A DNA stretch of 64,000 bases. Source: a virus. Both the position numbers and the translations under genes were made by a program. The notes beneath the pieces were generated by a model. It searched no databases and was not told the DNA's origin. It saw only the letters and a list, made by a program, of their open reading frames with translations. This document shows positions 1,486-52,481 of this stretch, piece after piece. The stretch's first letter is position 1. Each line of letters opens with the position of its first letter. Where the stretch lies: the IMG/VR virus record IMGVR_UViG_3300045988_120820, positions 64,001 through 128,000 of that record, one strand, 5' to 3'.

Positions 1486-2218
1486 TTTTAATATAGGTGA
1501 TAAAGTAAGAATAAGAGAGGATTTAAATGAATATAATTTTCATGATATAATTCCAGAGATGTTAAAATATAGAGGGAAGGAATTTGAAATAATAGATATA
1601 CGTTATAATGCTATCTTTGGTAAATGTTATGTGTTAAACGATGTTGATTATTTTTGGTATGGAGATGCGTTAGAATTAGTAAATGAATCAGAAATTAAAA
1701 TATTAGGTGTCGATTATACAACAAGCACATTAAAAATAGAAGAAAGTGTCTCACAAAAAGTAAGGGGATTTGAAATTGTGTCTGATGAATTTAGAAAACA
1801 TCCAGACGTAGATATACAATTGCCTAAACGTGGAACTAAAAAATCAGCAGGATATGATATATGTACTCCTATAGATATAATTATCCCTCCCAATGGTATA
1901 TCTGATGCAATTCAAACTGATTTAAAAGCATATATGTTAGAAGACGAAGTATTAGAAATAGTACCAAGAAGTAGTATAGGATTTAAAAAAGGATTGATGT
2001 TGATTAATACTGTAGGAATAATAGATTCAGATTATTATAGCAACCCAGATAACGATGGTAATATAGGATTTAAATTTAAAAATTTAACAGATAAAACAGT
2101 AGAAATAAAAGCTGGAGAAAGAATATTACAAGGGATATTTAAAAAATATTTAACAACAGATTATGACGATTGTGATATTGAGAGAATGGGCGGAATAGGA
2201 AGTACGGGGATTGAATAA
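1481..2218 (+). CDS. dut: dUTP diphosphatase with ~100-aa N-terminal extension
   Basis: C-terminal half carries the five trimeric dUTPase motifs: AGYDI, PRSSIG, GIIDSDYY, GERILQGIF, RMGGIGSTG. The first ~100 aa have no recognisable motif. Confidence 0.8.
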   Translation: MNFNIGDKVRIREDLNEYNFHDIIPEMLKYRGKEFEIIDIRYNAIFGKCYVLNDVDYFWYGDALELVNESEIKILGVDYTTSTLKIEESVSQKVRGFEIVSDEFRKHPDVDIQLPKRGTKKSAGYDICTPIDIIIPPNGISDAIQTDLKAYMLEDEVLEIVPRSSIGFKKGLMLINTVGIIDSDYYSNPDNDGNIGFKFKNLTDKTVEIKAGERILQGIFKKYLTTDYDDCDIERMGGIGSTGIE

Positions 2219-2301
2219 AAAATAATTAATAAAATTTTTATCGGATAGGTAATTTTAGTTGCTTATCCGATAATATATAAGTGTAGAAAGGACGTGATAA
2301 A

Positions 2302-2478
2302 ATGAACAGATATGATATATTACATGAATTAACATTAGAACAATTAGCCGAAGTATTGGGCAAATATAAATTATGTAATATATGTAAATACCAATCAGAT
2401 AATAAATGTCTAAGTATTTCACATAAAGAAAGTAATTGTTATGAAGGTATAGAACTATTTTTAAGAGAGGAGATATAG
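2302..2478 (+). CDS. hypothetical small Cys-rich protein (58 aa), below the ORF-track size cutoff
   Basis: Hand translation gives MNRYDILHELTLEQLAEVLGKYKLCNICKYQSDNKCLSISHKESNCYEGIELFLREEI. AAAGGA SD upstream. Co-oriented and tightly packed with its neighbours. Confidence 0.5.
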   Translation: MNRYDILHELTLEQLAEVLGKYKLCNICKYQSDNKCLSISHKESNCYEGIELFLREEI

Positions 2479-2480
2479 AT

Positions 2481-2708
2481 ATGAAAATAGGAGATAAGGT
2501 TAAATTAATAATAACTGAAAGTGAATTGGATAAAATATTAAAAGATAACAAAGATTTGGAAAATGAAATCATGGAATGTTACAATGTAAAGATAGGAATA
2601 ATAGTTGATAAATTTTTACCAAGTAAATTCATTTCAGAAAATTATTATTGTTTAAATACAAATGACAATGTGGCTTGGAAAGAGAGTGAATTAGAATTAA
2701 TAGATTAG
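2481..2708 (+). CDS. hypothetical protein
   Basis: 75-aa ORF with GAGAGGAG SD upstream; packed in the + operon. Confidence 0.6.
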   Translation: MKIGDKVKLIITESELDKILKDNKDLENEIMECYNVKIGIIVDKFLPSKFISENYYCLNTNDNVAWKESELELID

Positions 2709-2718
2709 GAGGTATGAT

Positions 2719-2868
2719 ATGCTTGTGTTAACTCTAGTTTTAATGGGGCTTTTGATTGGAATAATATTCAGTTGTTTAGGTTATACCGTAGATTTACCAA
2801 CGTATATTTTTACTTGTGTGAGTTGGTTTATAGGTACACTTATAGTTGAATGGTGGGATAAGAAATGA
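2719..2868 (+). CDS. small hydrophobic (2-TM-like) protein, 49 aa
   Basis: Hand translation MLVLTLVLMGLLIGIIFSCLGYTVDLPTYIFTCVSWFIGTLIVEWWDKK. TAGGAGG SD at 2705-2711. Confidence 0.45.
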   Translation: MLVLTLVLMGLLIGIIFSCLGYTVDLPTYIFTCVSWFIGTLIVEWWDKK

Positions 2869-3020
2869 AACTTTTAATTAATTTTATATTATTAATTATA
2901 CTTAGTTATGTTTTAGAAGAATCTTTTAAATTAGTAAAACCATACAAACATATAATGATTGCAACCATTATTTTCTTTGCTATATTAATATTTTTTAATA
3001 GTTTTGATTTATTATTTTAG
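2865..3020 (+). CDS. small hydrophobic protein, 51 aa
   Basis: ATGA start/stop overlap with the previous ORF. Translation MKLLINFILLIILSYVLEESFKLVKPYKHIMIATIIFFAILIFFNSFDLLF. Confidence 0.4.
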   Translation: MKLLINFILLIILSYVLEESFKLVKPYKHIMIATIIFFAILIFFNSFDLLF

Positions 3021-8498: not shown

Positions 8499-10268
8499 CT
8501 AAAATCCATTTTTGTGATTAGCTCTTACATATGTTGGATAATCGAAATAGCAAGTATCGTAATCTAAATCTCCATTGTGTCCTGGAAGTCTTTTAGTAGC
8601 TGACATTTGCCATAACTTAACCTCGGTTCTAGTCCAAGTACAAGCTGAACTCCATTGAGCTACCCATATGTGGTCAGTATATTTTATATTACTCCAATTC
8701 ACATAACTTGTTGCCCATGAGTTATTAGTGTAAATTCCTGCCATATAACCTGCATCATTTATTATTTGACAGAAAGTATTCATACAATTAGTTAACACTG
8801 TTTTTCCTGGATTACCCATTTTATCAACTAAGTCATTTTCTTGGTCAAAGAACACTGGGAATTCAAATGTTTGAGAATATTTATTTAATTGTTGAACCAC
8901 CCAATTCGCTTCTATTTTAACCTTTTCAACTGTATTTGCATATGAGAAGAAATAAACACCTACAGGGATTTTATTTTCAACACACAATTTTAAATATTCT
9001 TCAAATTTTGGGTCTATTATAGGTTGTCCACCTTTTCTGCTACCATAACCAATTCTTAATATCACAAAATTTATACTACCATTTTCTTTTAAAGTTTTTA
9101 AATCTATTGTACCTTGCCATCTTGATATATCTATTCCATAACAAGGCACTGTGAATCCTGTACTACCTCCTACTTCTCCTGTTCCTCCTGCATCAACTGT
9201 TATCGTAGATATACTTACATATGAACTACTAGCATTTATATATCCTATACTATTATTATAGCTTACTTTAACCCATGAAGTATTTGTATAAGTTTCAAGT
9301 ATTGGTAGTGTATATCCCTTAGGTACTGCTCCTAATACACTATATTTTACACCCATTCCACTTCTAACATTTAAAGCATTACAAATTACTTTTGCAACTT
9401 TAGTAGTAGAAGATAATAATAATCCCACATACGCTTTACCTGTATTTTCTCCTATTGCAGTAGCAGTAGGTTGGTCTTTACAGTTTATAGCGAATACGGG
9501 AAGACTGTGTGAAGAACTTAATCCTAAAGCATCATTACTTATTGTTCCTGTTATTTGGAATACCTTACCGTCTATATCCTTTCCAGTGTCTGCAAATTTA
9601 ACATATTGTCCAACATATCTTTGGTCAGTAGTTAAACATACATTTTTATCTGGATATTTATCACTTGTAAATTCTGAATCTATATAATAACCCATTATAG
9701 TTGAGTCTAAAGTTAAATTAGACACCCATACAGTTTTATCTTCAGCGGGTGGCTTTACAGGTGTTGGATTACTTGGGACATCTTTTCCATCATCGTCATC
9801 ATCTTTAGGTTCTTCATAAATTCTTATCCATAATTTATATTTTGGGTCATTAGGAATATCACTACCAATATATATTTCTTCTTCTGTAAAATGTTCAAAC
9901 ATATATTTAAATATATCATTAAGAGAATCAAATTTAGTTCCTTCAACTAAACCCTCTTTGTAACTACATAATTCTTTTCTCATAGTTTCAATTAATTCGT
10001 CTTTAGTCATATCATTGTTATCTAATAAAGCTCCTATACCTTTTACTTCATACGCAACTTTAATTTCCGTATCCAACTCTTCAAAAGAGGAAACTATCAA
10101 GCATTCTTTTTCTTCGTCATATTCTGGTTCTACTCCGTTTATTTTTTTAAACCCATATTTTTTCATTAGGTCTTCATTTGTATTAAAGTTAGTTATTAAA
10201 TTCCCTTCTGAAGTTTTATAATTCATAGGAGCATATACTAATTGATTATTTATAATTTTTCCGTACAT
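8499..10268 (-). CDS. GH25 muramidase with central SH3-like domain and N-terminal fibre-associated domain
   Basis: C-terminus GIDISRWQGTIDLKTL..FVILRIGYGS..DPKFEEY..VGVYFFSYA is the GH25 pattern. NVRSGMGVKYSVLGAVPKGYTLPI..WVKVSY is SH3-like. Confidence 0.8.
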   Translation of the reverse strand: MYGKIINNQLVYAPMNYKTSEGNLITNFNTNEDLMKKYGFKKINGVEPEYDEEKECLIVSSFEELDTEIKVAYEVKGIGALLDNNDMTKDELIETMRKELCSYKEGLVEGTKFDSLNDIFKYMFEHFTEEEIYIGSDIPNDPKYKLWIRIYEEPKDDDDDGKDVPSNPTPVKPPAEDKTVWVSNLTLDSTIMGYYIDSEFTSDKYPDKNVCLTTDQRYVGQYVKFADTGKDIDGKVFQITGTISNDALGLSSSHSLPVFAINCKDQPTATAIGENTGKAYVGLLLSSTTKVAKVICNALNVRSGMGVKYSVLGAVPKGYTLPILETYTNTSWVKVSYNNSIGYINASSSYVSISTITVDAGGTGEVGGSTGFTVPCYGIDISRWQGTIDLKTLKENGSINFVILRIGYGSRKGGQPIIDPKFEEYLKLCVENKIPVGVYFFSYANTVEKVKIEANWVVQQLNKYSQTFEFPVFFDQENDLVDKMGNPGKTVLTNCMNTFCQIINDAGYMAGIYTNNSWATSYVNWSNIKYTDHIWVAQWSSACTWTRTEVKLWQMSATKRLPGHNGDLDYDTCYFDYPTYVRANHKNGF

Positions 10269-15812: not shown

Positions 15813-18800
15813 TTATTTATTCCAGATTTGATTTATCCATGAATTTTCAAAAAATGTTTTATCATCTTCTTTGAATTTCCAGAAATTAATCAAAGTTCCA
15901 CCATATTTCATATAACTTGTAAATCTTGTTTTATACTGACTTATTTTACCATAATAATTCATAGCCCAATTATAAGATTGAGTATAACTCCATGCTAAAG
16001 ATTTATTTCCGTATTCAACAATATAAGCATCCACTCGTAAAGGATTTGTCATTTTTGAACTTACATCAGAATAAGATTTTCCCAAAAATAAATCGAAATC
16101 TGTTCCACCGACACCTGTGTCACAAACAGTTACAATACCATCTTTATTGCCCCATTTTCCTTTTAAGAAAGGGATATAAATCTTACTACCATATGGTAAA
16201 TTGTATGAACCGACACTTTTTGCGACTTCTAATGGTAAACCAGAACCTCCTGTTGTATATTTTGCTGAATAATATCCAGTCATACAACAATTAGTTAATT
16301 TAGCTACATAATTTACTCCATCTATTGTTCCATTTTCATAGAATACATTTGGATGTTCAGAGTCTGAAACATTTGTATTTGTATTTCCATTAGAACTGTT
16401 TTTATCAGCTTCAGCAACTTGAGGTAATCTAAAGAATATCCATTGATTTTTATCAAAAGTTCTTTTTCCTTTTCTTATACCACTTGAGTAACCAGATGCC
16501 TCATACATTTCATAATCTGAATATCCGTAAATCATAACATGATGTGTCCTACAAGTGAATACATTATTTCTATTAAAACTTACTCCATCATTAACACAAA
16601 GAACAATATCTCCTGGTTTTGCATCTTTCAATCCCTCTTCTTTATATAACCAATATTCAGCTCCTAGTTGTTTTAATTTCTGTTGTAAAGTTCCTGCTCC
16701 ACATGACAATCCTTTTAAATCGGGTATACCTGCGTAATCATAACAACATCCTGTATAACTAGAACAATCCCATCCATATGTTTGATTTAACACTACCCAT
16801 GATGGCTGGGAATATGTCACGCCACCAACCGTTTCATAACGTCCTTTAATTGTATTTGGATTCCTGTAATCTACAGTTCTATAATATTGACTGTAATTTG
16901 CTTGATGATTAACACACATTCTAACTATTTCTTCAGCTTTTTCCATAATTTTTTGTCTTATGAAATTTACTCCATTTGTCTCATTATCTTCATCATCTGG
17001 AGGAATAAATGTGCCAACATTATTTTTGATTTGATATTTAATATTATTTAATAACATTTTACATCCTACTACATTTAAGTCTAATCCATTATAAGTATAA
17101 TGTGAGGCTAATACTTCATTTTCCACCATTCCACCTTGAACTGTTATAGATTTTAACCCTAATTCATTTGCGATTTTTTGTAACATATTATTATAATTTT
17201 TAATTTGACTATTTAATTGTTCATAGTTATAATCTACAGTTGCATAATTTATACCGACAGGTAATTCATTTGCTACAAATATATATTTTCCTGTGTATTT
17301 AGTTTTTATAGAATTTAACAATGTCTTTATTTTACTTATGTCACATAGAGAGTCATTGTTTAATCCTAACATAACAACGATAGCTTTTGGGTCTGATGGA
17401 TAAGTTGTAATATCAAAATCTTCAACAATATTTCCAAAATACGTCATTTTTGGGGCTAAGTTATACTCTTGTAGATTTTGAATTCTTTTTGTTCCTATAA
17501 TTAATACTTCATCTAAATCATCTATATTTATTTCTGCCTCTTTACCACTAACCGTAACAGTACAAGATGCTTTTATTTTAGTATTTTTATTTGATATAGC
17601 TGTTATAGTGCATTTTCCTTGACCTACACCTGTTATTAATCCCTCATTTGATACTTTGGCTATATTACCATCAGAACTAATATATGTTATTGATTGATTT
17701 GCATTAGTAGGGATTACTGTAGGCAATAAATAAACTGATTCATGTTTATCTATTTCTAATGAATTTGTATTCAATCTAATGCCCGTAACGTTAACATTAC
17801 TACTATCTCCCATATCAACTTCTACGACTACTTTACAAGTATCTGTTTTATTACCATCTTCTGTTATTACAGTTATTATACAAGCTCCATATCCATTTCC
17901 TACTATTACACCATCACTTACACTTGCAATGTTTTCATCACTACTAATCCATATTACATTTTTATTTTTAGCTGTATCTGGTAGTATTGTCGCCTTTAAA
18001 ATATATTCTTCATTTAAATTTATATTTAAAGTATGCTGACTTAAATCCACACTTGAAACACTGTCAACGTAAGCTTTATTAGGGGAAAAATCTAAGTCTA
18101 AATCCATACCAGTCATTAATGTACTATTAACTTTATTGTATTTTTGTTTATTCCATAACCATTTATTAACTGATACAATTTTTTTTGTTTCTTTTGATTT
18201 TTTTAATAAATCAGCAATTACTCTAGTATCTTCTTTATTAGTTTTTTTATTTGAGAAGGTTAAACTTAATTTATTATCTTCGTAATTCATAGCCCAACCT
18301 GTAAAGAAAACTAATTCTTCTTTATCTCTTTCTTTATCGTAAGTAGATATAACGTCTCCTAAACCTAATTGAATTTCTGGACTTAATCTAATTTTGTCAC
18401 CTAGCAATCTATTCACAAAATTTGCAGAATCTATCGAGAATTCTACTGTAGGTTTACATTTAGATTCTAAAATATGTTTTCCTGTTTTTATTAATTCGTT
18501 AGCATCTACAAAACTATCATCTGAATATGTATCATAATAAATGTAATCTTTTAATTCACTTAATAAATTTTCATTGAATAATAAATTACCTGCGTCGTCT
18601 TCTGACGTTTCTCTTCTACATAATTTATTTAATCTATTAATTTTAATATCTAATTCTTTTAATTCTTTTTCTATTTTATATATTTGACTTGAAACAGATT
18701 GCAATTCTAAATTAGATACATCTAATTCACTTTTTATATCGTCTAATAAATAATATTCTTCTTCAGTTTCCATATCCGTATAACCGTCTATTATATTTTG

Positions 18801-20565: not shown

Positions 20566-23500
20566 CTATAATGATTTATTAACAATATCTTTTAAAGTTT
20601 TATTAATCATTTCTTGCATGTCATCAAGAACATTTTCATCAACACTTCCTTCAACATTAATATTGATATCACCCACATTTAATGTTTTAGAAGTTGTATC
20701 TTTATTCATACCTTCTTTATAATTTACATTTCCTAATTGTTTGAATCCAAGTTCTTTAAATATATCTTTATAGTCTTTTAAATAATCCAAAGCTACTTCA
20801 AGATTATCACACAATTCTGTTTTAATTGAATCACCTAATATTCCTACTGCGTCTCCACTTGTTTCTGCAAAGTCAATCAATTTATCTTGTAAATTGGTAA
20901 TATTACCATTTAAATCAGTAAAAGTATTAGTCATCATCGCATCTTTAACCATTTGTGCTATTTTTTGTGGAGTATAAGTGTCATCTATATTTTGTGTCAT
21001 ATCTTCTTTCTTTTTATCTAAAGCGTCTAATTGTTCTTGGAACATATTATCGATGTCTTCATCAACCTTATTTTGAACTGTTTCATCTAATTTATCTTGA
21101 GCTTCTTTTAAATCGTCTAATAATTCTTTCAACTTAGATTTACCACTCATAGAATTATCTCGTTTTGCTAATTCTATTTTTTTATTAATAGTGTCAATTT
21201 CGTCTTGTTGTTCTTTTAAATTTTTTGCATAATCATCTTCATCACGTTGTTTTTTATAATCATCTCTTCTTTTTTCTATTAATTCTTTTTCTTTGTCATA
21301 TTGTTTTTCTATAGCGTCTTTACGTTTATCTATTTCATCTTTTATTACATCTGTGATTTTATCTTCTATGTCTTTCACTTTATTAAGTTTATCTTTTTGT
21401 AAATCTACTATGTTTTTTTGTAAATCAGCATAATTTTTTTCTGCGTCAGCTAAATCGTCATTTATTAAAGAAGTATATTCTTCTAATAAATCATTAACCT
21501 TTTCCAAATCTTCACTGTTTTGAAAACTGTTTAATACTTCGTCTATATTGCTTACATTTCCTTCTACATCAAATGTGAAACCATATTTAGATAAACTTTC
21601 TTGATATGTAGGAATCTTATTTTTCATATTAGTCATTAAATCCATTTGTTTAGATAGTTGTTCATTCATAAGTTTTAATTTTTCTTCTGTCAATTTAATT
21701 GTATCTACTCCATTTGAATTTTCTAGTTTAACATCTATTATATCAATTTTATTTCCTAGTATATCGAATTGATTTTTTAATTGAGTTATGGCGTTGCTAA
21801 ATTTATACAATTTATCTTCTCTAGTTAGTTTTTCAATTTCGTCATTATTTTCTTTAATTGTATTTTTCATTTCTTGCCATTGTTCTTCACAACTAAATAT
21901 ATCACTTTGTTGTATATCATAATATTTATTAGCTAAGTTTGTAAGTTTATCCAATTCTTCTTTATATTTACTAGCTTTATCGCTTGCTGTATTATTTGAA
22001 GAACCACTAGAAGAGCTACTTTTAGAAGATTTATCGGCTACATCTTGAAGTCGTTTATATTCTTTTTGCATAGCCAATAATTTTTCTTCATAGTTAGTCA
22101 TATTCCCATCTTCATTAAATTTGAATCCTTCTTTTTGAAGTTTTTGTTGAAGTGTTTCTCTTTCAGAAATTAAATCGTCATAATATTCTTTTTGAAGTTT
22201 AGCCTGTTCTTCTAATAATTTATTTTTTTGTTTAAGATATTTAATTTTTTCAGTACCTACTGCTTTTTCCATTTGTTTATCTAATAATGAAGTTTTCTTA
22301 GTTACTGTTTCAATTCTATATTGCAACTCTTTAAATAATTCAACAGAGTACTCAATCATATCTAATACATTTTGATATTCAAGGCTTATAGGAGTTAAAG
22401 CTGTTTCTATATCACCTATACTATTAAAATCTCTCGTAGCATAAGTACTTATTCCACCAGAACTATCTGAAGTAGAATTTGTTGTGCTTATATCATTTGC
22501 AGTTACTACAGGTTGTGAAGTCACCATTGGTGTAGCACTCAATTGCTCTACAGAATAAGGATTATCTTCTATATTAGAAAATTCACCTATAGAATCTCCC
22601 CACATTACTGATTTTCCCTTTCCACTATGAGGAACTTTTGATTTACCTTTTTCTGTATAGCTTAACGTAGCCATTATTGATATACTTCGTGGTATTTCGT
22701 TTATTTTTTGTTTTAAACTATCTAATTTATTTGATATATCGGCACTATTACTAATTATTTTAATATATTTCTCTGGAATTTTTAATCCTTGAAGTGCATA
22801 AAGTTGCTGTAATGCTTGAAAAGCCATTACGGTAACATCTACAACTTTATTTTTTAATTGTATAGCATCTACAGTTCCAAGTTCATCTAATGCATTAGAT
22901 AATGCTACTCCAACTTCAATTTGTTTTTCTGCTGGTAGTTGCCCTATTAAGTCCATTACGGTTGCTATGTCACCTTGAGCTAAAGCTTTATCTATTTTTA
23001 CTTTTATGTCTTTTTCATCTTTTTCATTTAATAGACTATCTATTTCAGCCTTAGCAGTTTTTATTGTATCTTCACCTAAAACATTTATATGACAACTTGT
23101 TACTGCTTCTGGATGGTCAAATACCCATTGAATCATGTCTTCATAAGATTTCAATTCAGATAAATCTTGAATGTTATTTTTAAAAAATGTTTCAATGTTT
23201 TTATCTTTACCTCTTAAATTATCCATTAATTTGGCATAATTTTCAACTTGGTCGGTATTTTCTATATTCGCTCTTAAAGTTTTTACTATTTCATCTTTTC
23301 CGTCAAATTGTTTAAAACTCGCAAAAGCGTCATCTATTTTCTTTTTATCGTCATCAGATACAGCATATTCTCCTGTAACAAACAGTTTACCTACATCTAT
23401 TTTACCTTTTCCAAATTGTTTATCTACAAGATTTTGAACGTCTTGAATTAAATTATTTCTAGTTTCTTCATCATCTTCTACATAAATTTGAGATAATTTA

Positions 23501-24519
23501 GCTGTTAATTCCATATCGTCTAAAGAAAATTCATTGTCGTCCATCAATCGATTAACCAAATCTTTTACTTTGTCTGGTAAATTACTATCTTCTAAAGTGG
23601 CTTTAACTTCTTTGATGTTGTAAACCATTTTTCCGTCTTTTTCTACTGTATCAAGACCACTTAAATCTTGAAGAAAATTATTGTAAGCGTCCCATGTTGC
23701 CATTAAATCTTTAGTTTCTTTATCTGTCATGTTTATGTTTTTACCAAAAGAACGTAAATAAGCATCCATAGCATTTTGAGCCATTTTAGCACTTTCTGGT
23801 AACTCTACCATACTTCTAGCTACATCTTCATTTACTCCCCATAATTTGGCTAAAGAAGGGATTAATTTTTCAATTCCTTGTTCATAAGCAGTAATGTCAC
23901 TTGTGTCTGCGTATGCTTGTTGTAAATCATACAATTTTCTTATTGATTTATCTATTGTTCCAGAATCAAACATTTTTTTCATATTCGATTCAAATAAACT
24001 TTGTTGTCCACTTGTTAATTGAGAAAAATCTAATCCATTTACAACTTCTATCATTTCAGATTGAACGTCACTTTTTAATTTACTGAAACCATCACCTATA
24101 GACAAAGAGTTTACTATACTTTTATTAATTTTTTGAGATTCGGCACTTATTTTTGCTTCAGCATCTACAACTGCCTCTTTAGCACTAGCATACGTATCAC
24201 TTAATTTAGCAAGCCTTTCTGAATAATCTTCTAGCCATGCTGAATCACCTGTTTGAACAAATGTGTTATTAAGTTCATCTTTCTTTTTTCTGATGTTTTC
24301 TATTTGTCTATTATATTCCTTAATTGCTTGTTTATTGAAAGCCCCATCTTTACCAGCAAATCCTTGTCCTTCATTCATTTTGTCTGTAGCATTTCTTTGT
24401 TGGTCTTTATATTCTTGATTCAGAGCCTCTTGTTGTTTCTTGATTAATTTATCATATTTTGCAATTAATTTATCAATATCTCCACCCATCGATAAAATCG
24501 GGTTATTATCTTTATCATA
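20566..24519 (-). CDS. tape measure protein, exon 5 (C-terminal 1317 aa)
   Basis: Long coiled-coil ORF. The proposed 3' splice acceptor lies after G at 24520, and the frame continues from exon 4 (..DIVLG|YDKDNNPILSMGG..). Confidence 0.75.
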   Translation of the reverse strand, partial: YDKDNNPILSMGGDIDKLIAKYDKLIKKQQEALNQEYKDQQRNATDKMNEGQGFAGKDGAFNKQAIKEYNRQIENIRKKKDELNNTFVQTGDSAWLEDYSERLAKLSDTYASAKEAVVDAEAKISAESQKINKSIVNSLSIGDGFSKLKSDVQSEMIEVVNGLDFSQLTSGQQSLFESNMKKMFDSGTIDKSIRKLYDLQQAYADTSDITAYEQGIEKLIPSLAKLWGVNEDVARSMVELPESAKMAQNAMDAYLRSFGKNINMTDKETKDLMATWDAYNNFLQDLSGLDTVEKDGKMVYNIKEVKATLEDSNLPDKVKDLVNRLMDDNEFSLDDMELTAKLSQIYVEDDEETRNNLIQDVQNLVDKQFGKGKIDVGKLFVTGEYAVSDDDKKKIDDAFASFKQFDGKDEIVKTLRANIENTDQVENYAKLMDNLRGKDKNIETFFKNNIQDLSELKSYEDMIQWVFDHPEAVTSCHINVLGEDTIKTAKAEIDSLLNEKDEKDIKVKIDKALAQGDIATVMDLIGQLPAEKQIEVGVALSNALDELGTVDAIQLKNKVVDVTVMAFQALQQLYALQGLKIPEKYIKIISNSADISNKLDSLKQKINEIPRSISIMATLSYTEKGKSKVPHSGKGKSVMWGDSIGEFSNIEDNPYSVEQLSATPMVTSQPVVTANDISTTNSTSDSSGGISTYATRDFNSIGDIETALTPISLEYQNVLDMIEYSVELFKELQYRIETVTKKTSLLDKQMEKAVGTEKIKYLKQKNKLLEEQAKLQKEYYDDLISERETLQQKLQKEGFKFNEDGNMTNYEEKLLAMQKEYKRLQDVADKSSKSSSSSGSSNNTASDKASKYKEELDKLTNLANKYYDIQQSDIFSCEEQWQEMKNTIKENNDEIEKLTREDKLYKFSNAITQLKNQFDILGNKIDIIDVKLENSNGVDTIKLTEEKLKLMNEQLSKQMDLMTNMKNKIPTYQESLSKYGFTFDVEGNVSNIDEVLNSFQNSEDLEKVNDLLEEYTSLINDDLADAEKNYADLQKNIVDLQKDKLNKVKDIEDKITDVIKDEIDKRKDAIEKQYDKEKELIEKRRDDYKKQRDEDDYAKNLKEQQDEIDTINKKIELAKRDNSMSGKSKLKELLDDLKEAQDKLDETVQNKVDEDIDNMFQEQLDALDKKKEDMTQNIDDTYTPQKIAQMVKDAMMTNTFTDLNGNITNLQDKLIDFAETSGDAVGILGDSIKTELCDNLEVALDYLKDYKDIFKELGFKQLGNVNYKEGMNKDTTSKTLNVGDININVEGSVDENVLDDMQEMINKTLKDIVNKSL

Positions 24520-25568
24520 CAATATCTTCAATTAGGTTCGCTACTTCCTAATCAGTTCTCTTATGAACTTCTCTATGTTTCCATAGAAGTTGAGACTATA
24601 TCTTTACCTTTATTAAAGGCACATACCACTTCCACTCGCTTGAGTGTACGAGCATTTGCTCTAGTCGTTGAAGTTTACTTTTATTAATTGCTTAAATTAT
24701 ATTTTTTTGAAAATTCAATACTATTTTTTAATCTATTAGGTTTATATTTCATATCAAATTTATAATAAAATTCTTTTGGTATATATTTTAAATAAGGTCT
24801 GACTACATCAAAAAATTTTCTAAAATTTGTAGCGTTAAAATACAATCTATAATATGTTCTATTCTTATATCCTTTGATTCCAGATTTATCAGTATGTATT
24901 TTTAAATCTATATCAAACCTTCTCTTAAACATGTCTTTAATTCTTACATTATCTTTATAACTGAAGCCTTGAGTATTTAGATACCCAAATCTTTTAGCAT
25001 AATTATTTTTAAACGAAACATGCCAGTTTCCATCATCTAAAAACCAAAGTAATAAACCAAAAGAATTTATATTGTTTAAAACTGTGTCTGATAAATATTT
25101 TTTACCATTTAATAATGTATTCTTTTTAAATTCTTCTTTATTAGGAATTTTTATTCTAACATTAGAATAAATATAAATACCAAATGTTGTATTTTTTTCA
25201 TAATCATATTTAGAATGAGTGTCTATTCCTAAAGAACTAAACGTATATTCTAACCATTCAACATAAAATCTTTGTTTATTGGTATGGACACAACGAATAT
25301 ACTCTCCATTGATATCACCATCCCCTAACATCAATCCATATAAACTATTTATTATTTCTTTCTCATTTTTAATCATGTGAATACTCACTCCTTTTTTTAT
25401 TTTCGCAATTAACTTAAAGTCTTACCTGCTGATTGCCCAATCCTTAAACTTTTTAAAACCATCACGCTCATCATTACTGATTACGTTGTGGTATTAAGGC
25501 TCTAAGGGGTTTCCAGCAATTCAATATGTTTTCTAATAATAATTTCTTATTATAGGGGCTATTTATTA
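24520..25568 (-). mobile_element. group-I-like intron TMP-I4 (family A, 1049 nt) carrying a LAGLIDADG ORF
   Basis: The exon ends GGU with UAA immediately after. A P1-like pairing GGGU|UAAUAAAUA-GCCC is present. The core ACGACUAG..AUAUAGUCUC is P7-like. The insert ends ..AAGAUAUUG. It is homologous to 26451-26860 and 43379-43748. Confidence 0.75.
24684..25376 (-). CDS. LAGLIDADG homing endonuclease (intron-encoded)
   Basis: Two motifs, LYGLMLGDGDI and LLLWFLDDGNW. AAGGAGTG SD upstream. ATG at 25376 is preferred over the track's non-ATG start at 25388. Confidence 0.85.
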   Translation of the reverse strand: MIKNEKEIINSLYGLMLGDGDINGEYIRCVHTNKQRFYVEWLEYTFSSLGIDTHSKYDYEKNTTFGIYIYSNVRIKIPNKEEFKKNTLLNGKKYLSDTVLNNINSFGLLLWFLDDGNWHVSFKNNYAKRFGYLNTQGFSYKDNVRIKDMFKRRFDIDLKIHTDKSGIKGYKNRTYYRLYFNATNFRKFFDVVRPYLKYIPKEFYYKFDMKYKPNRLKNSIEFSKKYNLSN

Positions 25569-26450
25569 ACCCAAGACAATATCTTCACCACAAATATCAA
25601 TTATTTGTTGTTGTAACTCTTTAAATCTTTCTTGTTGTGCAGAAGTTTTATCTACTGTATCGTATAATTTTTTATATTCATCTCTAATATTGGATAAATT
25701 TGTTTTTGCTTTTGTTGAGCTAGTTACTTTATTATTTAAATTGGTTATATTTTCTGCATTTTTTTCTAAAGCGTCATTAAGTTTATTAGCCTCGTCTGTA
25801 AAATGTTGAATAACTTTACCTATTCCCCATGATACGAGCATACCTATACCCATATTTATAACGCCCATAGCTAAATTCATAGCTCCTAAAGCTACTTTTG
25901 TTCCTAATGCTTTAGCCTCTACACCTGCTAAAGCACTTCTAACTGCTGTTAATCCAGAGGCAAATACTCCAGATGATTGACGAGCCTCTTTAAATGAAGT
26001 ACCTATCCCTTTTATTACATTCCAAGATTTTCCAAGATAACTAGCTTGAAATCCTTCTTTTATTGTTGCAAAGAATCCTGGATTAGCAGTCCCAACCATC
26101 GTAGCACTAGATGCTTGTCGTGTTGCAGTGGCTTGTCCTTCTAGTGCAGTAGTTGTACTCAAAGCTTCGGCTTTTAATCTTCTTTCTTGATTAATTAATG
26201 CTTCAAATCCACCACTTTGATTAAATTTTATTGATTCAAAAATACCAGAAATTGCCCCTGCTATTACGGGTAATCCTACACCCATGTCATCTATATACTT
26301 AACAAATTTATCTAACATGTCTAAAGCACTTATACCAATGTCTAAAAATCCTTTTGCCGTATTTCCACTTACAGCTGTATTGACTATACTTCTCCATTTT
26401 TCTTGGAGTAATGTAAGTTTCCCTTGCACGGAGTCTATATATCTTGCATT
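25569..26450 (-). CDS. tape measure protein, exon 4 (294 aa)
   Basis: NARYIDSVQGKLTLLQEKW.. continues the TMP core, followed by hydrophobic Gly/Ala-rich segments typical of TMPs. Confidence 0.75.
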
Positions 26451-26860
26451 CGTTATCTTCACATAAATTCGCTACATTTACGCAGTTCTCTTATGAACTT
26501 CCTATACTTTCATATAGAGTCGAGACTATTTCTTCACCTTCAGCATTATCTGTTAAGGGCAAAGTATTTCCACTATCAATAGCTTATAGTGTACGGTTTC
26601 ACAACCTAGTCGTTGAAAGTTTAATCTAATTTATTAATTATTTTTTAAATCTTTTAAATGATTTTTAATTATATTAGATTAATACTTGCATGAACACCCA
26701 TTGTTTAAGATTACTTAGGATTTAACCATATAATCATCCTTACGTTTTTTCTACTTTCGTACCTTCACGTTTATTGTTACCAATTACGTTGTGGTGTAAG
26801 GCTTTAGGGATTACCTGCTTTTAACTTTGTGTCCTACGCACATTTCTGTACGTACGGAGA
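26451..26860 (-). mobile_element. group-I-like intron TMP-I3 (family A, ~410 nt, ORF-less); 5' junction uncertain (26861 or 26870)
   Basis: Shares UAGGACACAA, GCAGGUAAUCCC..ACACCACAACGUAAU, CAACGACUAG, AAAUAGUCUC and the ..AAGAUAACG 3' end with the capsid and I4 introns. Confidence 0.7.
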
Positions 26861-26977
26861 ATGTTGTTTCTCTTTCATTGAACTTCCGAAAGTGTCGCCA
26901 TTTTCGTACTCTTTCATAAATTTTTCTGCTTGACTCCAGTTACTCATTATTGCTGTGAAAACGTTCAGTTGGTTTTT
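26861..26977 (-). CDS. tape measure protein, exon 3 (mini-exon, ~36-39 aa)
   Basis: Hand translation KNQLNVFTAIMSNWSQAEKFMKEYENGDTFGSSMKE(KQH). This is the xxQxNxFxAxMxNW segment expected after AIAG in TP901-type TMPs. It is not in the ORF track. Confidence 0.7.
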
Positions 26978-28142
26978 CGGTTTGTTATCGTAAAGGCTTT
27001 TTATCCTCTACTTCTTATAGTTTCCTATAAGCCCAGCATACATTTTCACCCTCGTTTAACGTTAGGTATTGATGGTTGCAAACCCATCTCAAGTATTACT
27101 ATATAATACTGTGGAGGAGGCTCGTGATAGGATTATTGCTAACAATATCGCTCACCTATTATGCGTTACGGATGTTCTCTGTTAAGACACCCTCGGTATT
27201 ACCATATCCGTTAAGGACTTAGGCTCTCTTACCACCTTAATCTTTCGATTTAGTTGACCGATACACCCCTCTAATCTACATGATATTTCTACCATGAGTG
27301 GCATAATATTTAATTAATAGTTTATATTTTTTAAATTTTCTTTCTAAATATATATTTGAATTTTTATAAATATAATCACAAAAAGTTAATACATCTTCTT
27401 TTTTATTAGTTACTAATCTAAAGATATCATTGGATTTACAATTCGTTTTGTAAATTCTCCCCAATGGAATATTTGTATTCAAACATATACCTTCTAGGAT
27501 ATTTTTAGTTCCTAATATTTCTATACTTTGATGTTTTTCAGTACAAACAATACAACCATCTCCATCTAAATACCCTCTTATAAAATGAGGTGTTAATTCT
27601 TTAGGAACTTGTTCTTCTGTTGGAAAAGTTAATGTCAATGATTTTCTAGGAGTACATCCTAATTTAATTAAATCTTGCTTCATTTTTTTATTTTTAAAAG
27701 ATACTCTACATCTAAAATCATCTACAATTAATTTTCCCTCAAACCCTATAAAATCTTTGAATTTTTGAAGATGCTCTTTATCTGATAATTGTAAAGAAAG
27801 TTCTATATCATTTCTTTTACCACTTGAAATACTTCCATCGGCATATAAAAATCCTAACCAATAAGCTTTTTCTTCAGAGTCTATTTTCTCAAATATATCA
27901 TCGTTTATCTTCTTTTTATGTGGCATAATATTAACTTTTATACCTTGGTTTTTTAAATAAGAAGAAAATCTACTTCTTGAAATTTTTAATTCTTTACTGA
28001 TTCTAGCTGTAGATACTCCTTCTAAATACATTTTTAAACCCAAATTATATTTTTCTAAAGTTTCCTCCATCATAATATTCACCCCCTTTTTATTCTTTCC
28101 TTTATTAATTATTTTTAAACCTTTTAAACTATTAATTTATAT
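26978..28142 (-). mobile_element. group-I-like intron TMP-I2 (family B, 1165 nt) carrying a LAGLIDADG ORF near its 5' end
   Basis: The exon ends GGU and the insert ends GAUAACAAACCG. It shares AUUAGAGGGGUGUAUCGGU and GGUGAAAAUGUAUGCUGG with the terminase intron 51617-51968. Confidence 0.75.
27276..28073 (-). CDS. LAGLIDADG homing endonuclease with N-terminal HTH (intron-encoded)
   Basis: Motifs WLGFLYADGSI and FIRGYLDGDGCI. N-terminal TARISKELKISRSRFSSYLKNQG is HTH-like. GGGGGTG SD lies 8 nt before the ATG at 28073. Confidence 0.85.
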   Translation of the reverse strand: MMEETLEKYNLGLKMYLEGVSTARISKELKISRSRFSSYLKNQGIKVNIMPHKKKINDDIFEKIDSEEKAYWLGFLYADGSISSGKRNDIELSLQLSDKEHLQKFKDFIGFEGKLIVDDFRCRVSFKNKKMKQDLIKLGCTPRKSLTLTFPTEEQVPKELTPHFIRGYLDGDGCIVCTEKHQSIEILGTKNILEGICLNTNIPLGRIYKTNCKSNDIFRLVTNKKEDVLTFCDYIYKNSNIYLERKFKKYKLLIKYYATHGRNIM

Positions 28143-28313
28143 ACCTGCAATCGCTTCAGCTACAGAAGATTTACTTTTTTTATCTAATTTATCCCACATT
28201 CCTGCTATATCGCCCATGATGTCATAGAAATCTCTAACTTGGCCATTTGAATCGTGCATATCAATTCCAGTTATTTTTTCTATGGCCATTGCTGTTTTAT
28301 TCATTGAAATACT
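28143..28313 (-). CDS. tape measure protein, exon 2 (mini-exon, 57 aa)
   Basis: Hand translation SISMNKTAMAIEKITGIDMHDSNGQVRDFYDIMGDIAGMWDKLDKKSKSSVAEAIAG, the conserved TMP core segment. It is not in the ORF track. Confidence 0.75.
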
Positions 28314-28623
28314 CGAATTGTTATTAACGTTAAGTTTTTTATCTTAACCTCTGGAAGTTTCCTTCATTTTCATCGATTGGTCATTTCCAATCCAGTCTGG
28401 CGTACATATTCCATCTCATATAAGACAGTCGGAGACTCTTGGAGGAATTATATTCTATTTAAATAGTTTCATCCTCTACGCTCTACATTATTGAATAAGT
28501 TTTAATTTATTCAATTAACTCGGTATTAACTTATCTTTATTAATTATTTTTAAGACTTAGTCTTTCTTACCATATGTATTACTACATATATGACCGAATT
28601 TCCCCGAACCGGCAATATTATTT
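28314..28623 (-). mobile_element. group-I-like intron TMP-I1 (divergent family B, 310 nt, ORF-less)
   Basis: A P1-like pairing CGGU|AAAUAAUAUU-GCCG is present. The 3' end AAUAACAAUUCG parallels GAUAACAAAUCG and GAUAACAAACCG of the other family B members. GNRA hairpin GAAG-GAAA-CUUC. Confidence 0.65.
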
Positions 28624-30654
28624 ACCGTCTTTAGCACTTGTTTTCCAACCTGCCATATTTTGCATGATTGTTTTTAAACCATTACCTAATTTACTTGCAT
28701 TTTGTAATGGTTCTTGCCCTGCAATTATAATAGCAACCAACTCTTGCATACTAACACCTAATGTTTTCGCAACAGAAGATGAACGCATCATTGCTTCAGA
28801 TACGTCTTTACCTGTAACAGCATAGTTGTTGTTTGCATAGTTGACCATATCCATCATTTGCATCATTTTGGTAGTTTCTTTGGTGTTACCTTTGACTTTC
28901 ATTGTGACTTTATCTAATGAGTTTGCAACACCACCATAAGATGCTAATGTTGATTTCAAGTATTTATCTGCATCTGCTTGGCTTGTATCTATAACGTTGG
29001 CAAACATAGATGCATTTTTAGCATATTGTAAAGCTTTACTAACATTATGGAAACCAGATTGTAATGCCTCGGCAGTGGAATCAATTATATCAATACTACT
29101 TCTGGCAACCTCTTGACCTGCCTCACTTGCTTTTTGAGTTAACCAATCTAATTGCTTGGCTGTTCCTGTAAAGGTGTCTGGTGCAACTTTTAATAATTTT
29201 TTAATAGCCGTATCTGTATCAATAATAGTACTAGGAATTGAAGATATACCTTGAGTGATAAGTCTACCAATCATATTTGGTATTGAATACATTGATAACA
29301 TAGAGGCTAAATTACTGAAAAATCCAGACGTTTTCTTGGTTGCATTTCCTAATATATTCATTGCTTGAGTTGCACTTCTAGCACCATTAGCAACTCCGTT
29401 TATACCATTTCCGTTAATATTAGATAGACTACTAGAAAAAGTACTTACGTCTTTAGTCAGTGCTTTTAACTCTGCGTCTCTATCTTTTAAATTACTTATA
29501 CTAGCTATAGTTTGTAGTCTTTGTTTAAATTCTTCTACCTTAGATGATGAAGCTCCTAATTCTTGACATCTTCTTGTTAAGTTTGTTAAATCTTGAGATA
29601 CTTTATTAAAATCTGCATCAAATTTTACATTAGCTCTTTTAGTAGAAATTTCACTTTCAAATTGTTTATATTTATTTTCACATTGTGCTATTTTATCTTT
29701 TAAACCATCAAATTCAGCTTTAGCACCTTCTGTATTAGGGTCTATATTTCGTAATTTTGATTGATATTGTTCTATTTGAGTTATTAGTTCTTGTATTCCA
29801 GATGTATTAGCAAATTTACTCGTTCCTAATTCAGCAAGTTTAGCTTTAAGAGATTCTAACTTAGCAACAGATGTATTTATCTTATCGGTGAATGTAATTG
29901 AACCATTCAATCCTTTTAATGACACCGACACATTACTAATCTCTGCATTTAAATTATGTATTTGTTCATATGCCTTGTCAGATTTTAATATTTGACTTAA
30001 ATCAGCACCTTTAACATTATTGATTTTATTTTGAAGTTCTTGAAGTTGTCCCATCTGTGAACTTGTTAAGTTTTTATTTTTGAACATATTATTAATTTGT
30101 TCAGAGGTATTATTAGCCTTTTGTTGAATTTTATCAAATGAACTTATTAAATCTCTACTTATATCTATATTAGATTTATTTTTTAAGTTGTCCATTTTTT
30201 GTGCAGTAGATTGCATCTCACTGTTAATTTTTGATAACTTAGATTCTAACTCGTTATAAGCTTGAGTATTTATAGTTTTAGACATTTGTTTTTGAAGTGA
30301 TTCTGATTGTTTTTGTAAAACTTTATATTTAGCTATAGTATTATCTAATTCTTTATTACCTGTAGAAGTCTTAGTAGAACCACTGCCAAATAAATTTTTT
30401 TGCACGTCTTTACTTAAAGAATTTATTTCTTTTAAAGTGTTTTGTATTTGTTTAAGATTGTTTAATTGGTCATCTTTAAGTTTAAAGGCATTGTTTAGTA
30501 CTTTTTGAAGTTCTTCCATTTGAGCTTTCATTTTAGTAGTATCAAATTTTAGATTAACTTCTTTTTTCTCTAGCTTTTCCTTCAACTTAGCAACTTCTTG
30601 CTCTGCACCACTTCCATCTACAGAAGTTTTTAACCTAATAGTTAAATCTGCCAT
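28624..30654 (-). CDS. tape measure protein, exon 1 (N-terminal 677 aa)
   Basis: Coiled-coil N-terminus, then ..GVSMQELVAIIIAGQEPLQNASKLGNGLKTIMQNMAGWKTSAKDG, the start of the TP901-type TMP core. A stop follows one codon after the proposed GGU splice donor. Confidence 0.8.
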
Positions 30655-50341: not shown

Positions 50342-51616
50342 TTAATTAGCTAAGAAAATATGTCTTTTTCTCTTGTTTCTATTTTTCTTTCTTATATCTT
50401 TTTCTATTAATTCAGCTAAATAATTACCATAAGTAATAGAAGAATATCTATCTTTACGATTTCTTCCTTTTTCTTTAAGAACTATATCACCATTTCCCAT
50501 AGTTTCATAATCTAAGTTTATTGATTCAAATATAAAATTAGATGTTTGAATAAATGGTGCTATTTTATTAGCATGGTATTCAGCGTCTTGATGATATTTT
50601 AAGTCTTTACTAAAGTCTCCTCTTTTTTCATTTTCTTCTATTAATAATCTTATTTTTTTACTACCAAAAGCATTTTTAAGATATACTGCACAATCATTAT
50701 TTATTTTTTGATTCCCTTTAATTACATATATACAATTTATACCATTTTTTAAAGGTTGAAAATCTTTTGATTGTGTACTCATATCATAAATGCCAAAAGG
50801 TTCGTAATGTTCATCAATATTTTCGTCATAAGATGATTTTTCCATCTCTTGTATTACTGCTATACCTAAACCACCACCATCTATAATGATTTTATCAGCT
50901 TTAAATTCTGTATATAATCTCTTAATTCTAGTGGCTTGTTTTTCAAATTTCATACCATTATGTGATTCCATATAAACAACTTCTCTAATAATATTATTTC
51001 CACTAGGAAGTAATCTCCATAAAGTAAAAATAGAGTTATCATTTTTATTTGATTTGTTAGCTTTTGCTGTGGCTACATCGACCGAAATTATTCTTATTTC
51101 GTCTTTCTTTTTAGGCATTTGTCTTAATTTCTTTTTCTTCTCTTCCGGATTTCTATAGTCGTCATCTGTTAATGGATAATAACAATTCTTTAAAACTCTA
51201 GCATTTAACATATCAGATGTATTAAAGAAGCAATCACCACTTTGTCCATGCCATATAGCACCATATTCCATATTAAATACAAATTCGCCCATGTCCTCTT
51301 TATCTTCTTCAATCTTATCTTTTAATACAAGTTTATGGTCTAAAGAAGCTAAATAAGGAATAGCACATGCAAATGATTTTCCACCCTCAAACATTCTATT
51401 TAGTATAGTCATAAACTTTTCATAACTCCAATGAACTTTCATCCATGCAGAACTTAGATATATCTCCATATTAGCTTCTAATGGATAATCTGCATATTCG
51501 GGTTTTTCTAAAAATGGAGGTTTTCTTGGATTTGTTAAGAATTGTTTTAAAACTGAATTTATTATATCTAATTTGATAAGCCTAAATTCGTCTGCAACCA
51601 ATACGTTACCTCTCAA
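50342..51616 (-). CDS. terL: terminase large subunit, exon 2 (Walker B + nuclease domain)
   Basis: Begins LRGNVLVADEFRLI (Walker B-like); ISVDVATAK and IIDGGGLG are nuclease-domain-like. It has no start codon of its own (TTG in frame after the intron's terminal G). Confidence 0.75.
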   Translation of the reverse strand: MRGNVLVADEFRLIKLDIINSVLKQFLTNPRKPPFLEKPEYADYPLEANMEIYLSSAWMKVHWSYEKFMTILNRMFEGGKSFACAIPYLASLDHKLVLKDKIEEDKEDMGEFVFNMEYGAIWHGQSGDCFFNTSDMLNARVLKNCYYPLTDDDYRNPEEKKKKLRQMPKKKDEIRIISVDVATAKANKSNKNDNSIFTLWRLLPSGNNIIREVVYMESHNGMKFEKQATRIKRLYTEFKADKIIIDGGGLGIAVIQEMEKSSYDENIDEHYEPFGIYDMSTQSKDFQPLKNGINCIYVIKGNQKINNDCAVYLKNAFGSKKIRLLIEENEKRGDFSKDLKYHQDAEYHANKIAPFIQTSNFIFESINLDYETMGNGDIVLKEKGRNRKDRYSSITYGNYLAELIEKDIRKKNRNKRKRHIFLAN

Positions 51617-51968
51617 CGATTTGTTATCCTATAGGCTTTTTATCCCATAGTTCTTACATTTTACCATCATGTAAGTCCAGCATACATTTTCACCTTCAGC
51701 ATTATCTGTTAAGGGGAGGAGGCTCGTGAGAAAATTATTGCTCTCATATTATCGCTCATTTCTTATGCGTTACAAACAGTATTAGATATTACTGCTCTCG
51801 GTATTGTCCCTTGTGAATTGGAGGATTCTCTTTTAATTTTATACAAATTCAAAATGAAGATTTCCTGTGCTTTTTCTTCTCTTAATATAAAATTATTATT
51901 CATTTTATGAACCGATACACCCCTCTAATTATCTAAAAAATTTCTCTTTTAGACGGCTATACTTTTTA
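51617..51968 (-). mobile_element. group-I-like intron in terL (family B, 352 nt, ORF-less)
   Basis: The exon ends GGU followed by UAA, and the insert ends GAUAACAAAUCG. Long blocks are shared with TMP-I2 (27000-27275). Confidence 0.75.
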
Positions 51969-52481
51969 ACCTCTCGCTCCATCATTAGAAGCTATAGCTG
52001 TTATTACAGAACCATTTTTAAAAATACATTTAACATTATCCTTATTATTTTGAACTTTTTTAATTTCTTTTGCTAACGCAGGGTAATCCCTGCGTAAATC
52101 TTCAATCTTTTCGGTTATAATTAATCCTGCTTGGTCTTTATTACCAGATGCAACTACTATCTTTGAACCCGGATATAATATTGCTCTACAACATACAAAT
52201 ATCGCGGTTATAAAACTTTTTCCCAAACCCCTCGATGCAATCCAGCACACACTTGTACATATATTCATCATGTAAAGCAATACTTGTTGAAACCAATACA
52301 AATTAATTCCTAACCAATCCATACAAAATCTATGTGGATTTTTTCTAAAATATTCAGTCCATATTTTTACACCATCTAATAAGTTTTCATATGAATCCTT
52401 TTTTAAGTTTTTTCTTTGTTTACATTTTAATTTATTTTCCATATCCACGCTCATCCTCCTCTGTATAAGGAGTTGAATCAT
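51969..52481 (-). CDS. terL: terminase large subunit, exon 1 (Walker A ATPase part)
   Basis: IASRGLGKSFITAIFV is a Walker A motif, and the exon ends ..ASNDGARG. The true start is probably at 52442-52454, overlapping terS; the coordinates give the track's longest ORF. Confidence 0.75.

Follow-up and report, generated by a model that had tools for sequence, protein, structure and literature searches.

The gene for the large terminase subunit (TerL) of the virus record IMGVR_UViG_3300045988_120820 is interrupted by a 352-nt insert, and we read this insert, with a probability of roughly 0.9, as a phage group I intron of Twort/IA2-like type located in the ATPase domain of TerL, just upstream of Walker B. 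The DNA analysed, referred to here as the window, comprises 64,000 nt and corresponds to positions 64,001 to 128,000 of the record. A first-pass annotation of the window had described a large terminase gene interrupted by an intron between Walker A and Walker B. This description was supported by intron-less alleles in related phages, a joined protein without gaps, a covarying RNA fold and the scores of family models; the class of the intron, which had been left unnamed, is group I, Twort/IA2-like. The interrupted gene has the following parts:

51969-52481, minus strand: TerL exon 1, with Walker A (ASRGLGKS) and GGU as its last codon; Terminase_6N match with E 2.7e-7; colinear with the TerL of phage phiCD211.
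51617-51968, minus strand: 352-nt group I intron (Twort/IA2-like) without an endonuclease gene, missing from the intron-less alleles; nhmmer E 6.6e-36, covariance model 118.9 bits, all helices canonical.
50342-51616, minus strand: TerL exon 2, with Walker B (VLVADE), the nuclease domain and the stop codon.

Exon 1 ends with ..IASNDGARG, its last codon GGT being followed directly by TAA on the minus strand, exactly where this end had first been placed. The insert runs from 51968 to 51617, begins with TAAAAAG, ends with GATAACAAATCG (..AAAUCG in the RNA) and is exactly 352 nt long; both the length and the boundaries of the first-pass annotation were confirmed, with at least nine related contigs joining the exons exactly there. 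The boundary may slide by 1 nt, T being the first base of both the intron and exon 2, and only the phase given here yields an exon ending in U together with an intron ending in G. Exon 2 opens with TTG AGA GGT AAC (LRGNVLVADEF) and its frame remains open to the stop at 50342.

When the two exons are joined, the protein aligns with its counterparts in Clostridium phages phiCD211 and LIBA6276, whose TerL is uninterrupted, with no gap at the junction (SNDGARG|LRGNVLVADEF versus SNDDARGYRANVLIVDEY), and the match to the ATPase domain spans it, which upholds the product GARG|LRGNVLVADEF that had been predicted. The exon junction falls within both the Pfam TerL_ATPase match (residues 63-187) and the phrog_15503 match (6-220), and TerL_ATPase rises above its cut-off (23.7 bits) only with the exons joined, at 27.2 bits versus 20.7 for exon 1 alone. 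Terminase_6N is present in the joined protein, phrog_2 covers residues 19-563 and Terminase_6C scores 21.2 bits, slightly under the Pfam cut-off of 22.6, while exon 2 alone matches the terminase RNaseH-like domain. As expected of a terminase large subunit, a Walker A/B ATPase and an RNaseH-like nuclease domain are found in one joined polypeptide. Position 52481 is the start of the longest TerL open reading frame (ORF), which overlaps the upstream gene (53277-52432) by 50 nt (window 52432-52481). With GGAGGA at 52462-52457, translation more likely begins shortly downstream of it, at the GTG (52448) or the ATG (52442), judging by the sequence.

A search of IMG/VR using the joined protein returned 18 loci, most of them from related phages of about 114-140 kb. 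Loci L128-L133, L135 and L143 (85-94% DNA identity over the exons) and L139 (68-72%) are intron-less, with the exons directly joined at this point, where the sequence reads ..GCGAGAGGCTTGAGAGGGAAT... Intron-plus alleles coexist with these at the same TerL site. L137 has an intron which, like that of the window, is without an endonuclease gene; L134, L136 and L138 have an intron of ~1250 nt containing a 280-aa LAGLIDADG ORF; and L140 has an intron with a GIY-YIG/NUMOD ORF (GIY-YIG E 1.8e-9; I-HmuI NUMOD-like E 3.1e-6). The last codon of exon 1 is GGT in all intron-bearing alleles and GGC, GGA or GGG in close intron-less alleles. The internal guide UAGCC is conserved among the same-site introns of L134, L136 and L137.

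The fold of the window copy is given below, where intron position i corresponds to window coordinate 51969-i. The 5' strands of P3 and P4 were placed by hand, with their pairing then checked.

51955-51971, minus strand: P1, in which exon GGU with U1A2 pairs with guide U10AGCC14, with a U(-1)·G12 wobble at the 5' splice site; found in the minimum free energy (MFE) fold.
51932-51953, minus strand: P2 hairpin (UCUAAAA/UUUUAGA); canonical pairing, found in the MFE fold.
51920-51925, minus strand: P3 5' strand (GAGGGG), positions 44-49 with 248-253 (partner 51716-51721); 6 of 6 pairs compensatory in the family.
51911-51915, minus strand: P4 5' strand (UCGGU), positions 54-58 with 167-171 (partner ACCGA, 51798-51802); invariant in the family.
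51829-51910, minus strand: peripheral insertion from P4 to J4/5, comprising a mini-hairpin (UUCAU/AUGAA) together with a long AU-rich hairpin; in L140 this is where the GIY-YIG gene is located.
51839-51884, minus strand: remnant of a GIY-YIG/NUMOD gene, its last ~13 codons (..RKSTGNLHFEFV) and stop, left by a clean deletion of ~494 nt relative to L140.
51798-51825, minus strand: P5 hairpin (UCCU/GGGA), J5/4 and P4 3' strand (ACCGA); canonical, with family covariation.
51774-51797, minus strand: P6 hairpin of 8 bp; canonical, with family covariation.
51764-51770, minus strand: P7 5' strand, with A199, bulged C200 and G201CAUA205; G201-C289 is the candidate guanosine-binding pair.
51729-51763, minus strand: P7.1 (with P7.2) hairpin between P7 and P3', a subgroup IA signature; 5 of 5 pairs compensatory in the family.
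51716-51728, minus strand: conserved CACGAG joiner followed by the P3 3' strand (CUCCUC); P3 and P7 make a pseudoknot.
51691-51715, minus strand: P8 hairpin; canonical, with family covariation.
51679-51690, minus strand: J8/7 (AAAAUG) and P7 3' strand (UAUGCU); the block GAAAAUGUAUGC is invariant in the family.
51629-51675, minus strand: P9 (CUUACAU/AUGUAAG) and P9.1 (CUAUGGG/CCUAUAG, conserved loop AUAAAAAG); 6 of 7 P9.1 pairs compensatory in the family.
51617-51628, minus strand: 3' tail GAUAACAAAUCG, with the terminal omega G (51617) at the 3' splice site; the same-site introns of L134, L137 and L140 also end in G.

Every helix from P1 through P9.1, together with the P3/P7 pseudoknot, is canonical in the window copy, and an unconstrained MFE fold already includes P1, P2, P3, P6, P9 and P9.1. 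P7 pairs positions 199 and 201-205 with 285-290, so that A199-U290 and G201-C289 flank the bulged C200. By sequence and pairing, this G-C pair beside a bulged nucleotide is the candidate guanosine site of a group I intron, and the other features of the class are also present, namely a covarying P3-P8 core, the U·G wobble in P1 and the omega G (G352, at 51617). The mini-hairpin UUCAU/AUGAA still pairs in L137 through the double change UUCAC/GUGAA, which suggests that the RNA remains under selection.

The relatives of this intron extend well beyond terminase genes. Using blastn, its 3' half matched short unannotated stretches in many unrelated phages, each immediately upstream of a split gene's second half and often with an endonuclease ORF just ahead. 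Introns of the family lie exactly between the halves of split genes for the tape measure protein of Staphylococcus phage 6ec, the RecD helicase of Bacillus phage PJN02, the DNA polymerase of Alicyclobacillus phage MMB025 and the major capsid protein of a crAss-like phage and a bajarodcaudo virus, and the pattern of the conserved 3' block was found in at least 119 stretches in IMG/VR. From these relatives, 20 non-redundant compact members, none of them from the window, were aligned. Unguided RNAalifold recovered P3, P4, P5, P6, P7.1, P8 and P9.1, with compensatory change in 31 of 40 pairs, after which P7 was added as a pseudoknot across P3, along with the base of P9. Pairing was found in 97.5% of the cells of this alignment, compared with 38-42% when the partners were slid by 1-3 columns; 33 of the 49 pairs had changed on both sides, and not one of 500 shuffles equalled any observed measure. 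In the P7 of the family one nucleotide of the 5' strand is bulged beside an invariant G-C pair, a group I intron hallmark, and the pair beyond the bulge is A-U in 11 members and G-C in 9, being broken in none. P7 itself occurs in four mutually compensatory forms: GCAUA/UAUGC in the TerL intron of the window, GAAUA/UAUUC in L134, GCGUA/UACGC at window 28468 and GACUA/UAGUC in Twort.

Models built from the outside members alone identified the insert with high significance, an nhmmer profile at E 6.6e-36 and a covariance model, trimmed to start at P3, at 118.9 bits (E 5e-35). With filters off, the covariance model also aligned over its full length to the three Twort orf142 introns (55.2, 34.0 and 20.1 bits), and it detected the TerL intron of Streptococcus phage 2972 with 79 bits (E 4e-23). 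Two further model matches in the window, at 9600-9678 and 16444-16561, were weak and, falling within long intact ORFs, were attributed to chance. The likeness of ~270 nt between the insert and the 3' two-thirds of the tape-measure intron named TMP-I2, pointed out in the first-pass annotation, proved to be real but to extend over the whole ribozyme rather than just its 3' part, with 227 of 289 ungapped aligned columns identical (78.5%). The signs bearing on subgroup are a P7.1 that is present and covarying, the presence of P9.1 and the match of the model to Twort I1-I3 and not to T4 td or nrdB. On these sequence features the intron appears Twort/IA2-like. Subgroup IA2 is itself reported to be heterogeneous (PMC11878797), and close kinship with the T4 introns is not claimed.

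That the halves are instead separate polypeptides, divided by a dead relic, was also considered. Here exon 2 would be translated from the TTG at 51616, a legal start in translation table 11 with AGGA, in the P9.1 stem, ~11 nt upstream, giving a split terminase or marking a defective phage; the window is probably metagenomic, so its genome could be a defective one. We regard this as very improbable. The TTG is CAG or TTA in relatives and is no conserved start; the first-pass statement that exon 2 has no start codon is thus inexact in form only. The AGGA sits in a ribozyme stem that all family members conserve irrespective of the gene they interrupt, division of the protein between Walker A and Walker B would leave the ATPase fold in halves, and the ribozyme is without decay.

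Several points weigh against the group I intron or against its activity. The window is probably a metagenomic assembly, whose phage may or may not be viable, and both splicing of the intron and its independence of any protein are predictions from established group I chemistry. P10 is weak, at about one pair. The 82-nt insertion from P4 to J4/5 lies beside the catalytic core and might slow folding, and it made the covariance model misplace the 5' strands of P3 and P4 in the window copy. The covariance model, even with filters off, does not find T4 td or nrdB, and the tie to subgroup IA2 therefore comes from Twort alone. Finally, Rfam 15 (RF00028) gave no group I match, whether at the gathering threshold over the entire window or at E<=10 in the region. 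This silence is uninformative here because, in a control on T4 (L008, T4 135000-146000), td was not reported and nrdB scored 35.7 bits versus a threshold of 50. Even at E<=10 none of the five introns of the window, four of which lie in the tape-measure gene described below, was reported, and RF00028 of Rfam 15 is insensitive to phage IA introns.

The missing Rfam match is the only support for another kind of intervening element or an assembly artefact, to which we give the least credence of all. Group II introns have a 5' GUGYG, six domains with a domain V, usually a reverse-transcriptase ORF and a length of >600 nt, and such an intron was rejected on the 352-nt length of the insert, its 5' UAAAAAG and the lack of an Rfam intron match of any kind. 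The group II family of Rfam is RF00029 (PMC11878797). An intein was rejected, as a stop codon directly follows the junction and the insert is without an in-frame ORF. Translational bypass as in T4 gene 60, where the gap is 50 nt, does not fit an insert that is far longer and is a structured ribozyme. An assembly artefact was set aside in view of the same arrangement on the independent contig L137 and of endonuclease-bearing versions on four more.

As a group I intron, and most probably a self-splicing one, the insert would be removed in the following way. The pre-mRNA would fold into the P1-P9.1 ribozyme, and a free guanosine held at the P7 pair G201-C289 would attack the phosphate after the U that ends exon 1, which forms a wobble with G12 of the internal guide. 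The released 3'-OH of exon 1 would then attack after the terminal G352, joining the exons in frame (..GARG|LRGNVLVADEF..; ..GGAGCGAGAGGT|TTGAGAGGTAACG..) to encode one TerL of about 582-595 aa. A variant of this scheme is that the intron no longer splices by itself and depends on a protein cofactor, either a host factor or a maturase-like endonuclease of another intron, or that splicing is slow or conditional and limits TerL late in infection. The loss of the endonuclease gene, the 82-nt insertion beside J4/5 and the weak P10 would be in keeping with this, as would the two LAGLIDADG proteins encoded in the same window, the LAGLIDADG class including maturases. We nevertheless find it unlikely, given that all core helices are intact and canonical, that the mini-hairpin pairing is kept by a double change in L137 and that the related Twort introns self-splice. 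The core also scores no worse than those of endonuclease-bearing relatives, at 118.9 bits versus 111 for L140 and 99-111 for L134 and L136.

Taking the insert as a group I intron, comparison with L140 indicates how it came to its present form. Relative to L140, ~494 nt are gone, from the ribosome-binding site of the GIY-YIG gene to codon -13; the sequence on either side is almost unchanged, and the gene keeps its last 13 codons and its stop. The description of the insert as ORF-less therefore holds for an endonuclease gene and not to the letter, as these last ~13 codons are kept and a 46-aa ORF (51903-51763) is present. This ORF runs over core helices of the ribozyme, a Pfam search with it gave no match, and it was treated as spurious. 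In L137 the deletion at this place is larger. In L134, whose ribozyme is a diverged version of that in the window, the LAGLIDADG gene lies within the P1 loop. The one TerL site is accordingly found in four states, empty, with GIY-YIG, with LAGLIDADG and decayed, a series which is the life cycle expected of a homing intron. From the sequence, the window intron probably derives from a mobile form whose GIY-YIG homing endonuclease gene occupied the peripheral loop beside P4/P5, and is probably not mobile itself. The gene was lost in the single ~494-nt deletion, leaving a copy that may persist because splicing makes it harmless; without the gene, this copy is probably unable to home on its own. 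One irregularity of the L140 contig is that exon 1 is missing and the intron is joined at P4 to the first ~670 nt of the contig (L140:1-670), which are unrelated and GC-rich; a chimeric assembly or a rearrangement is the probable cause.

More tentatively, and with somewhat less than even confidence, we suggest that the intron belongs to a large, unnamed sub-lineage of phage IA-like group I introns, and that the single TerL site records a natural series of endonuclease genes entering and leaving a ribozyme independently of the spread of the intron. The marks of this sub-lineage are a P7 of GCAUA/UAUGC, the CACGAG joiner and the P9.1 loop AUAAAAAG, in at least 119 copies in IMG/VR; its carriers include Firmicutes phages and crAss-like phages, among others, and it escapes Rfam. 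At the TerL site two unrelated endonuclease genes occupy two different loops of homologous ribozymes, GIY-YIG beside P4/P5 and LAGLIDADG in the P1 loop. Matches of 88% to positions 161-251 of the intron core were also seen in Clostridioides phages or plasmids, at CP069348.1 89317-89407 (pCD1602_4) and CP067347.1 15446-15533 (ES-S-0107-01), that of pCD1602_4 being far from its terminase-like match, so that C. difficile phages probably carry this intron lineage in other genes as well.

Terminases are among the usual targets of phage group I introns (reviewed in PMC3984707), and the nearest known counterparts of the window intron are introns I1-I3 of orf142 of Staphylococcus phage Twort (IA2). 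All three are annotated as group 1 introns in the GenBank record, and I2 is the crystallised Twort ribozyme, as cited in PMC3984707. The Twort introns share with that of the window the helix order P3-P4-P5-P6-P7-P7.1/7.2-P3'-P8-P7'-P9-P9.1 and a similar 3' end (CUGAAC.., a hairpin and ..GUAACAUAAUUG, versus ..GAUAACAAAUCG in the window). They too are short, are without an endonuclease gene and lie several to a gene in a late structural gene. They differ in host gene and phage lineage, their similarity to the window intron is too low for blastn, the P7 of GACUA/UAGUC represents a double compensatory swap relative to GCAUA/UAUGC, and the AUAAAAAG loop of P9.1 and the CACGAG joiner belong to the window family and not to Twort.

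For the TerL intron of Streptococcus thermophilus phage 2972, PMC6356513, citing the original report, describes a group I intron that mRNA splicing removes. It is of the same family as that of the window and is also ORF-less, and the terminase is annotated as two coding sequences; it differs in being found in another TerL family, at a site after the ATPase region (..YDRDILG|K..) and not between Walker A and Walker B. In the Bastillevirinae, group I introns that are mostly IA-like have been reported in TerL (5 of 52 genomes) and Pol, with splicing verified experimentally, some genes having two or three introns and most introns carrying homing endonuclease genes in loops; these introns had only partial matches to the Rfam and GISSD models for group I introns (PMC11878797). 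Their phages are other ones (Bacillus myoviruses), and the likeness to the window intron is one of description. The td intron of T4 is a phage group IA intron with the gene for I-TevI (GIY-YIG) in a peripheral loop, and ORF-deleted derivatives of it are known. Presumably its P7 has the same layout as that of the window (UAAC-G....../......C-UG), the one check on this point being the Rfam alignment of T4 nrdB. In td the endonuclease gene is in P6a and not beside P4/P5 as in the window lineage, its host gene belongs to nucleotide metabolism, and td was found neither by the family covariance model nor by blastn. A group I intron also interrupts TerL in Lactobacillus phage LL-H, a phage of Firmicutes. 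Group I introns in phage terminase genes are already documented, and the window copy adds one member and no new principle.

The tape-measure gene of the same window (20566-30654, minus strand) appears to be in five pieces, separated by four group I introns:

about 28620-28311, minus strand: intron A, with no ORF; TerL-intron family, 60 bits.
about 28143-26979, minus strand: intron B, with a LAGLIDADG_3 ORF (28082-27276) in the P1 loop; TerL-intron family, 126.7 bits.
about 26880-26463, minus strand: intron C, of a second, Twort/td-like type with a P7 of GACUA/UAGUC; boundaries approximate.
about 25565-24532, minus strand: intron D, with a LAGLIDADG_2 ORF (25388-24684); Twort/td-like type with a P7 of GACUA/UAGUC; boundaries approximate.

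Intron B is probably the TMP-I2 of the first-pass annotation. Gene callers would list the terminase as two fragments and the tape-measure gene as five, while recognition of the introns restores a single TerL of about 582-595 aa. Screens based on Rfam miss the whole intron family, so that gut and Firmicutes phages probably contain more introns than have been counted, and a dedicated covariance model recovers the members that Rfam misses. The empty, GIY-YIG, LAGLIDADG and decayed alleles at one site offer a tidy example of the homing-endonuclease life cycle.

The best genome matches were an uncultured Firmicutes metagenome-assembled genome (96%) and Terrisporobacter mayombei (62%). A megablast search of the 16 kb around TerL against GenBank phages returned nothing beyond the 90-nt intron-core match, and the phage is therefore not among the deposited ones; it is an undeposited relative of the phiCD211 group. 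The TerL of T. mayombei JACRYU010000004.1, a cultured member of the Peptostreptococcaceae, is 62% identical to that of the window and contains an intron of the family (L148:2749-2999, 148 bits) which ends just upstream of residue 75, making this a third site in the terminase family and giving a hint as to the host range of the phage group.

A second TerL site was seen in relatives within exon 2, at gene position ~1021-1033 (exon-2 nt ~160), where the TerL of the window is uninterrupted. It is occupied in L137 by a family intron of ~420 nt (L137:3989-4336), and in L141, L142 and L145 (about 1585-3011) by an insert of ~1430 nt whose 326-aa ORF is zinc-ribbon/DUF5889-like and may encode a homing endonuclease. 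The contig IMGVR_UViG_3300045988_136853 (L030, the same contig as L143) has an ORF-less form of tape-measure intron B and yet an intron-less TerL; intron content therefore differs gene by gene among near-identical phages.

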